A DNA stretch of 64,000 bases from Eledone cirrhosa. Its lineage: Eukaryota. A program made the position numbers and the translations under genes. The stretch is from assembly GCA_964016885.1 (NCBI GenBank), contig OZ024742.1:240250001-240314000 (forward strand), read 5' to 3'. The notes beneath the pieces are model-generated. The model ran no database searches. It was given only the letters and a program-made list of their open reading frames with translations, and had not been told where the DNA came from. Shown here in pieces: positions 3,528-52,897 of the stretch. Position 1 is the stretch's first letter. Every line of letters begins with the position of its first letter.

Positions 3528-4671
3528 AATGACAGATGCGATATCACCCTGCTTCGTTGATGTCCTATCGACACCAAAGTTCAACGTTTGGGTATCACAC
3601 CAAACCGGAGTACTGTGATCCTTGTGACTTCCAAATATACAACCACTGACACTGTCACGAAGACCAGGAAACCATACTCCATATATTGAACCAATTGATT
3701 GATTTGTGCGAAACAAATAACACCAAACACATATTGAACTAGGAATATTGGATCCTCGGTCAATGTCCGGGTGAGCAAAAATTGACTTCTATCTGCATTG
3801 GAATTTACAAACTTGTGCATCTGCTGTGGTGTCAAAAACAAACGCACATGACCGCACAGATAAACAATGGACCATGCCACGTGGCTTGAACCCGTAAGTG
3901 AATTGAAGGTTCTGAAACTCTGATACACATATTGTTTATTATTTATTATTAAGATGTATAACCGGACACAACTGTTATCATCCTATATTCTCTCAACGAA
4001 TCACACTTGATCATATTTCTCTATCCTGTTTTCTCCCCCCATAATTATTATATTTTATTATTTTTTATTATTGTTTGAAAAAAATCGTTTTTTTTACATT
4101 GTGTTTTCCCCTCCAAATATTCGCTTATATTTCCTTATATATTTTTTATCTTTATTATTATTTCCACTTTTATCCTCCTTTATATTTTACCTTATTCTTA
4201 CCTTTATACCTTATTATAGTGTAATCTTCCCATGCCTTATTATACACTATTAATTATAGATTATTATTATTACTCTTTTTCCATTTCTAATTACCTCATG
4301 TACCTTCTCCTCCGCTATATGTATATATGTATTCTACGCCCTTTGTGTTTGTGTAGCCTCTGCGCACCCTCTGCACCATACTATCCACGCCACCCCATCT
4401 ATGGTTCAGCTAACCATCCGACCCCCGATGACCGCAGCTAGTAAACAAGGACCAACACCCCACCCTCTCGCACCAAAATTAGACTTATCGTCCCCTACTT
4501 TTGCTCTTTACTCTCTTTACTCTTTGTTCTTGGGTGTTTGGTTGGTAGAGTCCATAACACCAATCAAACCCCTTTTATAGCTCTGATGAATCCTACGGTT
4601 ACACGTAAGGAAGAAACATTGTTAGCCAATAAAAATCTTTTGATGTTGTAGACGCTCTTGTGTTCTTTTCA
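3528..4671 (+). mobile_element. Non-autonomous (TA)n-flanked element ending in a hammerhead ribozyme; 5' part resembles a decayed L1/Tx1-type ORF2 C-terminus
   Basis: Bounded by TA arrays on both sides; a stop-interrupted frame reads H*HCHEDQETILHIL...WILG...IYKLVHLLW; hammerhead at 4580-4626 followed by AATAAA and a short tail. Confidence 0.5.
4580..4626 (+). ncRNA. Type I hammerhead ribozyme (minimal, PLE-type)
   Basis: GCT-CTGATGA-[(a)tcctacg gttaca cgtaagga(a)]-GAAA-cattg-TT-AGC; stem I GCT/AGC, extendable with a mismatch; predicted GUU cleavage triplet. Confidence 0.7.
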
Positions 4672-5011
4672 TATATATATATATATATAAATATATATAT
4701 ATATATATATATAAATATATATATATATATAAATATATATATATAAATATATATATATATATAAATATATATATATAAATATATATATATATATATATAT
4801 AAATATATATATATATATATATAAATATATATATATATATATATATAATATAATATATATATAAATATATATATATATAAATATATAAATATATATATAT
4901 ATATATAAATAAATATATATATATATATATAAATATATATATAAATATATATATATATATATAAATATAATATAAATATATATATATATATATAAATATA
5001 TATATATATAT

Positions 5012-5194
5012 GCACTTCTATGCACTTCTTTAGGCTTACTACCCTGTCTTTATATATATATATATATAAAATATATATATATATGCACTTCTTTAAGGCT
5101 TACTACCCTGTCTTATATATATATATATATATATAAATATATATATATATATATGCACTTCTATGCACTTCTTTAAGGCTTACTACCCTGTCTT
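5012..5194 (+). repeat. Three copies of a 30-40 nt element terminus separated by (TA)n
   Basis: (gcacttctat)gcacttcttt(a)aggcttactaccctgtctt at 5012-5050, 5085-5114 and 5155-5194. Confidence 0.9.
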
Positions 5195-8100
5195 TAACCT
5201 AATTCATTCAATCTGAAATATGAAGAGATAAGACACTTTCCCATTCTTCTCTGCTAAAATGTATCACTAGAGCTGATTCCAATTTTTCCAGCCATCCATC
5301 TAATCTACGAAGGTATTTTAGCCTACATATTGTCGTTAATATTATGATGTTCCCTGCTGTATTAGCGTTAAATTTTCCCTGCTGTATTAGCGATAAATTT
5401 TCGAGGGTTTCTCTTAGTAGTTTTTTCATGACATTATTATTGTTAATTTTACTGATGTAGTATTAACTTGGATATTTACCATGCGACCCTCAGTTCCTAC
5501 CTCACAATTTCCCTCCCCCCCCCACCCCCACACACCACCATAGTCTATTCGACCAATCAAACCTAGCATGCCATTTCCACTGCTGCTGCTACTACCTGCC
5601 TAACTAACTCTCTCCTCCTCTGGCGCATCCCAACACACCCTGCCATTACCCCACCACCACTGTTCTTCTAGCCCTCAATTTTCCCACCGTTATGGATGGA
5701 TGAGCTGGGAATACACGAGCAACTCTGAATCAATAGATGAAATATGAATCTGCGAGCTACCAAGCACCCACGTGAAGCGCCAACCCAGAGACCCTCCCCT
5801 ACGAGTGTCGACAAATGCCCAAAACTCCGAGTTGGTACCATCAATGTAGGCTCAATGAAAGGAAGAGCAGGAGAAATCGTAGAAATGCTAGAGCGAAAGG
5901 AAGTTGATGTATGCTGTGTGCAAGAGACTAGATGGAGAGGAGGGTCTGCTAGAGTCCTTGTAGGAAAAAGCCAGTGCTACAAATTTTTCTGGGTGGGAAA
6001 TGACGATGGGATGGGTGGTGTAGGTATACTATTAGCTGACAAGTGGGTAGATAAAGTAATCTCAGTGTACAGGGTAAATGCAAGAATCATTAAACTCAGA
6101 CTAGTCCTGAATAAGACAATTACCACAATAATATCAGCTTACGCACCCCAATCGGGGCTGCCAGACGAACTTAAGGATAGGTTTTACGAGTCCCTAATAC
6201 ACACTACTGCTCTAACAGACGACAAGGACTTCCTAATCATTGCAGGAGATTTTAACGGACACGTAGGTAAACACTGCGACGGCTTCAATAGAGTACATGG
6301 AGGCCATGGAGTTGGCACAAGGAATGAGGAAGGATTCAGACTTCTAGAATTCTGCGACGCCAATGACATGTCGATATGTAACACAAACTTTAAAAAACCC
6401 GACAACCACCTGATCACCTATAGATCAGGGGAGCACTCTAGTCAGTTAGATTTTATCCTCATCAGAGGACGTGACAGATGGACGGTCGTAAACACAAAAG
6501 CCTTCCCTAGTGAGGAATGTACATCCCAACATAGCTTAGTTGTCAGCGACCTCACGGTCAGAACTAGACGAGCCCTGAAACAGAGGCCAACCTGGAGAAG
6601 AAAGATCTGGAAGCTGAAAGTCCCCTCAACCAGTAACAGATTTAAAGATATTTTACTCAACGCCTACGACAGTAAAGAAGAACAGATAGAGACATTTAAC
6701 GTAGAAGAGAACTGGGAGTTCCTAAAAAATAACTTACTAGAGGCGACGGATGAGGTTTGTGGCTGGAGTAAGACCTCAAGCAGGAGGAGAGTGACTTGGT
6801 GGTGGAACAATAAGGTAGATGAAGCAGTCAAGGCCAAGAGACAGGCATGGAAAGAATGGAAGAACGGGGGGAGCAGGGTACATTACATAGAGACCAAGAG
6901 GGAAGCTAGGCGACAAGTATACTTAGCTAGGAGGGAAGCAGAGGATAGAAAATTCAAGCATGTTTTACAACGTGAGGACCAGAAACAGGAGGTATTCAAG
7001 ATTGCGAGGCAGTGTGTCAGAGATAGTTGTGATGTCATTGGAGAGAAGTGTATCCGGAATGATAAAGGTGAGCTTGCCCTCACAAGTGCTGAGAAGAAAG
7101 ATGCATGGAAGAGTCATTATGATAGATTACTAAATGAGGAGAATGCATGGGAAGAAGAGACCCTACCCCACGTAGACCCTATAGAGGGACCAGCAGTACA
7201 AGTCAGCGGCAGCGTAGTAAGTAAGGCAATCAGAGATATGAAGATAGGGAAGGCAACCGGTCCATCGGGTATAGCTGCCGAGATGCTGAAGGCATCTGGG
7301 TCTGTAGGTCACACTATAACCACACGTATCGTTAACCAGGTAATACTAGAGGGGGCCATACCAAAAGATTGGTGCAGTAGCATCATTGTCAACTGCTACA
7401 AAGGTAAAGGCGATGCACTAGATAGAGGAAACTATAGAGGTATAAAGTTGATGGACCAGGTCATGAAAGTAACAGAAAGAGTTATAGCACAGCTGATTAG
7501 GGACCGGGTGAATATAGACGAGATGCAATTTGGGTTTGTACCAGGGAAAGGCACCACTGATGCCCTCTTCCTTGTGAGGCAATTACAGGAAAAGTACCTA
7601 GCTAAAAGTAAGCCACTCTACTTGGCATTTGTCGACCTTGAGAAAGCCTTTGACAGAGTTCCACGTGCAGTAATCTGGTGGGCTCTTAGAAAACTAGGAG
7701 TAGATGAATGGCTTGTGAAAGCGGTACAAGCCATGTATAGGGGAGCAGTCAGCAAAGTTAGGATTGGCAATGAGTATAGCGAGGAATTTAGCGTACAGGT
7801 TGGGGTCCACCAGGGCTCTGTTCTTAGCCCTCTCCTGTTCATCATAGTCCTGCAGGCAATAACGGAGGAGTTTAAGACCGGATGCCCATGGGAACTCCTG
7901 TATGCTGATGACCTCGCACTCATAGCTGAATCTATGGTAGAACTAGAGAATAAATTCAAAACCTGGAAGCAGGGACTAGAGAGAAAGGGCCTCAAAGTCA
8001 ACATGACAAAGACTAAGGTCCTTATAAGTAGACGAGAAAACAGAACCCAGATCCCCTCAGGGAAATGGCCTTGCTGAGTATGTAGGAAAGGTGTAGGTAG

Positions 8101-52051: not shown

Positions 52052-52112
52052 GAGAGTTGCAACGTAAAATTGGTTTGAAGGTTCTTGAATTGGGTGGAAA
52101 CTCAGTAATAGG
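52052..52112 (+). CDS. C2CD5: C2CD5 coding exon 7
   Basis: cttcag|ELQRKIGLKVLELGGNSVI(G)|gtaagt; phase 1-2. Confidence 0.93.
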
Positions 52113-52846
52113 GTAAGTCTCAGTTTCATCACCATCATTATTTAATGTCTGTTTTCCCTACTAACATGAGCTATCTAAAGTCAGTCTCGAGCCCAGAACC
52201 TTATCAGGCTGGTGCTTGTCCTGGTTTCCTTGGAGTTAAGCGACTAAGAGTACAAGACTCCCCACTGGACATGACGCCAGTCCATCACGGGGTTAAACTC
52301 CCAGCTATTGCTGGCGCTCATTTTCAGCTGAGTATACTGGAGCAATGTAAAATGAAGTGTTTTGCTCAAGAATACAACACACAATCCAGTCCAGGAATTG
52401 AACCCATGCTATTACAATTGTAAGTCCAACACCCTTACCACTAAGCCATGCGCCTCAATGGGCTGGACAAGTTGACTTTTATTTTTATATCTTATATATA
52501 TATTGTTGAAAAATCTCAGATTTTAAATTTACCAAAATCAAATTACATTTTATGTTTGGTAGAGAGATTGATAAATTGTGAGATTGTCTGGTCTTTTTTT
52601 CCACTTGGCCAATACAAGTGAAAGAATAAAAAAACAATTTTGAAATCATATAATACATCATATAAACATTATTCCAGTTATCATATTTGATGTATAGTAA
52701 TATTGAAGGCCTTTTCATTTTTATTAATTATAAAGAAATTACCCATTGGCTCTCCTACTCTCTTATATTTATATGTATGTATAAACATATATATATATAT
52801 AAAGGAAAATGCGAAGTTGTAGATGTTAGAGTCTTTTATTAATTGA

Positions 52847-52897
52847 GCCGTTATACATATTTCAATGATGATAGATATCGTGATTTCTTCAGACAGC
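52847..52897 (-). ncRNA. Type I hammerhead ribozyme in a short PLE-end-like insert (~52800-52960)
   Basis: Minus strand GCTGT-CTGAAGA-[aatcacgatatctatcatcatt]-GAAA-TATGTA-TA-ACGGC, then AATAAA, ~35 nt tail and (TA)n. Confidence 0.75.

Follow-up and report, generated by a model that had tools for sequence, protein, structure and literature searches.

The window analysed here is a 64-kb stretch of animal DNA (positions 240,250,001 to 240,314,000 of contig OZ024742.1 of Eledone cirrhosa, with all coordinates below counted from its first base). It is AT-rich (33% GC), contains long (TA)n runs and encodes several reverse transcriptases of long interspersed nuclear elements (LINEs); its repeat content appears octopus-like. 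The subjects of this analysis are a set of hammerhead ribozyme motifs lying close to the (TA)n runs and a broken open reading frame (ORF) of a Penelope-like element (PLE). Five of the 23 CUGANGA sites in the window complete a type I hammerhead fold, according to a descriptor demanding the type I order of helices, at most one base left unpaired at the helix II foot and at least 3 bp in helix I; a stricter version caught three of the five and was relaxed afterwards, hence the descriptor was tuned on the same data. In 200 block-wise dinucleotide shuffles of the window, the mean number of folds was 0.06 and the maximum one, with no shuffle reaching five. The five type I folds listed in the initial annotation are thus recovered: all have the core sequences CUGANGA, GAAA and UH, with helices I to III in type I order.

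In hammerhead 1 (4580-4626, forward strand), which matches the covariance model described below with an E value of 0.01, helix II has an A.A mismatch at its foot and helix I just three contiguous base pairs. Hammerhead 2 (10968-11038, reverse strand; model E 0.22) has a long helix II and a palindromic helix III, and its 3' end meets (TA)n at 10938. In hammerhead 3 (17606-17650, forward strand; E 2.2), found in a segment of 114 nt flanked by (TA)n runs, helix III is minimal and one additional base follows A9, at the foot of helix II. Hammerhead 4 (34296-34381, forward strand; E 0.078) is characterised by a long loop II and occupies a 227-nt segment (34224-34450), again between (TA)n runs. Hammerhead 5 (52847-52897, reverse strand; E 0.81), with a weak helix II and a quasi-palindromic helix III, is part of a segment of about 160 nt extending up to (TA)n at 52800. 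All five motifs face a nearby (TA)n run, at 47, 38, 4, 74 and 51 nt from the predicted cleavage sites of motifs 1 to 5 respectively. The earlier statement that each insert abuts (TA)n therefore stands as regards this proximity, but motif 5 has such a run at its 3' end only, the 5' side being the tail of an RTE copy; similarly, AATAAA had been said to follow three of the motifs, and that of motif 2 in fact overlaps helix I. The stems had been described as unlike one another yet paired: no similarity was detected by BLASTN (E<=0.05) among the five motifs and four further remnants, whereas the pairing of motif 1 is imperfect in both helices I and II. Cleavage is predicted after UA in four of the five motifs. 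Self-pairing of helix III amounts to 6/7, 8/8, 4/6, 8/10 and 8/8 in motifs 1 to 5, and because of this self-complementarity cleavage, if any, would be expected to occur as a dimer.

Reads from four of eight runs were aligned onto 3529-4670, the copy of the repeat family ending in hammerhead 1 (family 1), whilst families 2 to 5 were examined within the window. The displayed majority differences in hammerhead 1 are at N7, a 2-nt deletion in loop II and a change of H17 to A, most copies having UA; none is in the helices or the invariant core and there is no compensatory pair, although 69 differences and nine indels of family 1 lie outside those displayed. These data bear upon the simplest alternative, that the motifs are chance matches in AT-rich, repeat-rich DNA. 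Such an origin would fit with the Rfam scan of the window, which gave 60 matches at E<=1, none of them a hammerhead, and with the monomer folding energies, which do not beat those of shuffles for any of the five (z -1.37 to +1.18). However, it is effectively refuted by the excess of folds over the 0.06 expected and by the restriction of the majority differences in family 1 to free positions of the motif; the common orientation towards (TA)n also speaks against it.

The PLE ORF (12022-14406, reverse strand), identified through protein and profile searches, encodes a reverse transcriptase with the catalytic motif YRGDG plus a GIY-YIG domain at the C-terminus, the match to which (E 0.0036, 18 bits) is under the Pfam cut-off of 22.6. 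Its frame is shifted near 12171 and where 22 bp are duplicated (14091-14139). Relatives of the protein number 32 at 30-40% identity. As set out in the relevant part of Craig et al. (2021, PMC8557442), members of the Hydra clade are recognised by DKT, an RWK-like motif, a CxCx5C linker, CxxC and CxH, and by the absence of CCHH; the window's ORF has SDKT, LRWT (the K not being kept), CNCRIKNKC, CNLC and CLH, and no CCHH. Judged by these diagnostic motifs, it belongs to the Hydra clade. From comparison by eye with the protein in the supplement to that paper, it represents a different, broken family from Hydra-1_Obim of Octopus bimaculoides.

Just upstream of this ORF, a remnant of its pseudo-long terminal repeat (pLTR) and an inverted copy of this occupy 14487-14619 (reverse strand; E 0.003 to the related loci L013/L014). 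The fold-back is centred on a Hydra-type hammerhead, at the dyad of its helix III and its UA site; cleavage is predicted at 14548, and a GCTC tail hairpin follows at 14478. For comparison, we used 77 related loci, taken from the best 80 of 572 encoding relatives of the window's PLE protein. The start codon of the ORF is 141 nt past the 14548 cleavage site, a distance of 138-187 nt being found in 18 of 25 related loci; at the other end, motif 2 is 991 nt behind the ORF, against 64-515 nt from stop codon to downstream hammerhead in 40 related loci. Where a related locus has hammerheads in both pLTRs, these are identical in 14 of 16 cases. The window's ORF does not have the same hammerhead in both pLTRs, as the 14548 remnant and motif 2 are unrelated. 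The upstream match, the 991-nt distance and this unrelatedness together indicate that the 14548 remnant is the ORF's own ribozyme and motif 2 a second end, making doubtful the proposed linkage of motif 2 to the PLE ORF; such a distant, non-cognate second hammerhead also differs from the arrangement in the Hydra clade.

Direct reading of a 42-nt insert at 43756-43797 showed the 3' ends of the hammerhead 2 element and of the 14548 pLTR running in opposite directions; these are both outer ends of the 10938-14627 insertion, placed back to back. The joint suggests that the family is a stable chimera in which reverse transcription can begin at either of two sites, the alternative being that the insert is a deleted duplicate of the 10938-14627 locus. 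The related Hydra-type loci L016 (136-350) and L028 (2507-2988) likewise contain pairs of unlike hammerheads, arranged in series or back to back.

A sense-strand hammerhead was found in 57 of the 77 related loci, and the cut is after UA in 60 of 74 motif rows, although rows repeat families. Of the 61 motifs whose flank is long enough, 50 are followed by a GCTC...GAG hairpin, which in 48 of the 61 lies at 33-57 nt; the GCTC tail pattern by itself is not rare in the window. A covariance model was built solely from these relatives, using 23 of the 44 distinct motifs, chosen because their helix III is equally long. The helices covary in the resulting alignment: 95% of cells are paired and 10 of 12 pairs exhibit double changes, helix I, but not helix II, having been a criterion for selecting the motifs. 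Scanning with a hammerhead model, which had been suggested as a check, produced nothing from Rfam at E<=1, whilst the relatives' model places all five window motifs within the top nine of 15 hits, the highest being a remnant at 44037 (E 0.006). As two unrelated partial hits rank among the motifs, this support applies in aggregate only. Another type of PLE hammerhead was sought in viral contigs, and the six loci found were rejected for want of useful similarity.

Family 1 is represented in the window by a 5'-truncated copy at 3529-4670 (forward strand), between two (TA)n runs and with no recognisable ORF; it is also internally deleted, about 47 nt present in other copies being missing at 3592/3594. 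The summed contig depth in run X1, which does not equate to copy number, is 1,700-6,700 in the first 400 nt and 42,000-86,000 at the ribozyme, single contigs over family 1 having depths of about 9-17. Other copies extend upstream of 3532, by a median of 78 loose letters in run X6, and common non-TA sequence was found there in three contigs of X1 and 89 reads of X6. At the 3' end, 4668/4669 is joined to TA by hundreds of reads, and part of the reads (X4, X6 and X7) continue to a GCTC motif situated about 57 nt beyond the cleavage site, an extension absent from the 1142-nt window copy. Family 1 is hence repetitive and 5'-truncated, its end is of the Hydra type and its unit exceeds 1.2 kb.

These dimensions and this type of end mean that family 1 is not a short tandem retrozyme. 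Classical retrozymes without long terminal repeats (non-LTR retrozymes), consisting of 170-400-nt tandem units and forming circular RNA through double self-cleavage, would account for type I folds with a short self-complementary helix III and for three inserts of just 114-227 nt, and dispersed monomers are described in the relevant portion of bioRxiv 10.64898/2026.07.22.740005. Yet none of the five motifs is within a tandem repeat, no second copy of any of them was seen in the window among the matches listed, and the reads displayed no joint returning from the 3' end of family 1 into the copy. Such elements are therefore a very improbable explanation, and, as a form of the non-coding ribozyme retroelements entertained in the initial annotation, tandem retrozymes receive no support, the downstream continuation of family 1 being likewise missing from the window copy. 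The sections of PMC7229834 and bioRxiv 10.64898/2026.07.22.740005 dealing with non-LTR retrozymes describe type I hammerheads, no detected protein and a proposed origin from PLEs, all as here; they differ in being tandem units of some hundred bases, whereas nothing in the window is tandem.

Searches for coding potential in family 1 were negative. The three sense frames of 3594-3930 each contain 4-8 stop codons, with the displayed majority differences included. No match to its 5' part was obtained from Pfam searches of the three sense frames and two antisense ORFs, from word-based searches of two frames and a full phmmer search of the third, or from the Hydra profile. A 133-codon antisense open frame (3581-3982, reverse strand) has neither a Pfam nor an Atlas match (best Atlas value 0.78). 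Three further candidates were discarded: a 25-bit tblastn match to the Hydra N-terminus, since it spans the deletion and 20 shuffles reach 23.9; a likeness to a Neptune-type endonuclease, noticed by eye, which was unsupported; and an equally unsupported reading of in-frame UGA as selenocysteine. Either the trailer of family 1 is unusually long or the family lacks an ORF, and it may be non-autonomous.

More broadly, some of the families, family 1 first among them, could be non-autonomous, non-coding PLE derivatives that have retained the ribozyme and tail and are copied in trans by Hydra-type enzymes. Family 1 is repeated and has a Hydra-PLE-like end, yet its sense frames are interrupted by stop codons and no protein could be named; furthermore, PLE derivatives of this kind are already described in the portion of bioRxiv 10.64898/2026.07.22.740005 concerned. 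However, an ORF may lie further 5', as copies run on upstream of 3532; hammerhead 2 is situated behind about 1 kb of pyrimidine-rich sequence, which may mean that such trailers are usual in the host; and the differences and indels outside those displayed also count against it. We therefore regard a non-autonomous origin as possible, if somewhat unlikely.

Our preferred explanation, to which we assign a probability of roughly 0.75, is that the five motifs are pLTR ribozymes of 5'-truncated copies from several unrelated PLE families, mostly in or near the Hydra clade. It is based on the folds, the (TA)n distances, the Hydra motifs of the ORF and the copy structure of family 1. In outline, the GIY-YIG endonuclease of an element would nick (TA)n, and its reverse transcriptase would initiate some tens of bases past the ribozyme or, a little further on, within the tail hairpin. 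The uncleaved RNA would then be copied toward its 5' end, usually halting early, and the product would be the ribozyme and tail alone, sometimes with an inverted second copy. Families 3, 4 and 5 would presumably have ORF-bearing masters. Several observations weigh against this explanation. Four of the five families yielded no ORF; in family 1, the sequence upstream of the core lacks PLE similarity or a recognisable ORF for over 1.1 kb, in comparison to the 64-515 nt between stop codon and core in the 40 related loci; the 3' excess in run X4 is only 2-4 fold; motifs 2, 3, 4 and 5 are individually non-significant by the model (E 0.078-2.2); and motifs 2, 3 and 5 lack C15.2-G16.2, a pair normally present in the Hydra-type motifs. 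The latter three, differing from the Hydra clade in helix III, may belong to other PLE clades.

Much of this pattern has precedents. According to the supplement to PMC8557442, nearly all Hydra families target (TA)n and have a 3' hammerhead, one family being from Octopus bimaculoides. The elements of the window resemble this clade, Hydra-1_Obim included, in the motifs of the ORF, the (TA)n target, a 3' hammerhead with an unpaired or mismatched helix II foot and a short helix III, and the inverted 5'-truncated copies and tails; inverted 5'-truncated copies, tails and (TA)n targeting are indeed published features of PLEs. Family 1, with no ORF detected, differs. The account given by Cervera and de la Pena (2014, PMC4209133), in the portions covered, is of animal genomes that each contain thousands of minimal hammerheads. 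These are heterogeneous and for the most part solitary, are attributed to truncated PLEs and show weak activity when dimeric. With these the window's motifs share an extra base between 9 and 10.1, a palindromic helix III and pairs on opposite strands; the published pairs are about 100-700 bp apart, and those portions do not mention fold-backs centred on the core. The suggestion of additional PLE families sharing one (TA)n target is hence supported, as a pattern already in print (PMC4209133; PMC8557442). As animal retrozymes are derived from PLE ends in the pertinent part of bioRxiv 10.64898/2026.07.22.740005, both possibilities raised initially, additional PLE families and non-coding ribozyme retroelements, are therefore known kinds. 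Literature searches on cephalopod hammerheads gave nothing on point beyond PMC8557442 among the papers listed. In Octopus vulgaris, 31 Penelope-like families have been recently active, with ribozymes not mentioned in the passages of PMC13282606 covered; the repeat library of that study may already contain the window's families.

The mechanism outlined above draws on the Poseidon element PAc of Anolis (Frangieh et al. 2024, PMC11167929), which is of a different clade and has a different target, the elements here being known from sequence alone. PAc, as described in the parts of that paper relevant here, nicks both strands of AT-rich DNA and undergoes target-primed reverse transcription, with internal initiation at two tail-defining sites and an uncleaved RNA template; cleavage was dispensable for insertion in vitro. 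Beyond the five motifs, hammerhead remnants were found at 14548, 15178, 44043 and 54295-54555, giving about nine hammerhead-bearing families in the window once remnants are included. The feature at 15090-15434 (forward strand) comprises a hammerhead 3' end duplicated in inverted orientation (15090-15267), with its centre on C3-U4-G5 at 15178-15180; the right arm of the duplication runs into a tail-like extension. At 43978-44073 is an inverted duplication of a Hydra-type hammerhead (model E 0.006) with U.U at the helix II foot and a damaged helix III, centred on C3-U4-G5 at 44042-44044; at 53856-53895, the 3' tail alone of this family is folded back. Read directly by eye, 54295-54555 consists of two diverged, inverted hammerhead 3' halves between (TA)n runs, holding GAAA, helix III, the 3' strand of helix I, AATAAA and a tail.

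About 11 inverted duplications were noticed in a post hoc census made by eye: two are centred on the core, in unrelated families, one on the helix III dyad and one is doubtful. In both core-centred cases the inverted arm replaces all sequence 5' of C3. The doubtful third such case is a short fold-back (19973-20067) on CTG at 20040, with a Hydra-like helix II and no GAAA. All three clear fold-backs retain sequence 5' of the cleavage site, implying that the template was uncleaved, as for PAc (PMC11167929). The two core-centred copies hint that reverse transcription may stop at C3-U4-G5 (n=2). Against core-centred fold-back being general, no strand-change joint was listed in the family 1 reads, and none of the 77 related contigs has a fold-back at the hammerhead; both negatives are weak, because short-read contigs are prone to breaking at hairpins and few loci are sampled by restriction site-associated DNA (RAD) reads. 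Literature searches on core-centred fold-backs gave nothing on point among the papers listed, a preferred breakpoint at the core being absent from the passages covered.

The role of the PLE hammerhead is called unclear in the relevant part of PMC8557442. A combined interpretation would make it a point at which reverse transcription stops and RNAs pair, instead of a cutter, and family 1 a dispersed, non-coding element of over 1.2 kb using Hydra enzymes. Two RNAs would be paired via the palindromic helix III and copied from both nicked (TA)n strands; both cDNAs would halt at C3, or the helix III dyad, and their head-to-head joining would produce hairpin inserts with CUG (15178, 44043) or helix III (14552) at the centre. 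The two exact cases in unrelated families, the one on helix III and the doubtful one (20040) are what prompts this proposal, which we consider speculative and distinctly unlikely as a whole.

Hence about nine unannotated hammerhead-bearing PLE-type ends are present in one 64-kb window, and, whilst the kind itself is published, their density and diversity in this host, and the failure of Rfam to detect them, are apparent. Should breakpoints cluster at the core genome-wide, they would constitute a large natural record of reverse transcription stopping on a ribozyme, and the role of the PLE hammerhead would become testable by counting.

A number of other repeats and coding remnants surround these elements. 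A long inverted duplication with arms of about 215 nt lies between (TA)n runs at 2209-2693; the hairpin at 2255-2688 contains a hammerhead-like stretch with no canonical core and was excluded from the count. No hammerhead features were seen in a hairpin with 24-bp arms (20318-20363) or in 34823-35000, where the arms flank a 72-nt TA run. Past hammerhead 3 and five TA units, a sequence of 199 nt (17660-17858) ends in a short ATG-started frame cut by (TA)n, and could correspond to a 5' untranslated region and the start of an ORF. A decayed Hydra-type reverse transcriptase fragment of another family (50602-50967, reverse strand; E 2e-7) has no ribozyme attached. RTE-type LINEs are found at 5741-8863 (forward strand) and 44546-47692 (reverse strand), the latter having an uninterrupted 1048-aa frame that encodes an endonuclease, a reverse transcriptase and a PHD-like finger, and many truncated 3' ends of these elements lie in the same (TA)n nests. 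Exon-like pieces at 37549-37650 and 48060-48190 (forward strand) exhibit below-cut-off similarity to the C2 domain; motif 5 and several remnants may sit in introns of a host gene encoding such domains. Finally, tRNA-like heads of short interspersed nuclear elements are located at 54612-54669 (forward strand) and 34748-34805 (reverse strand).

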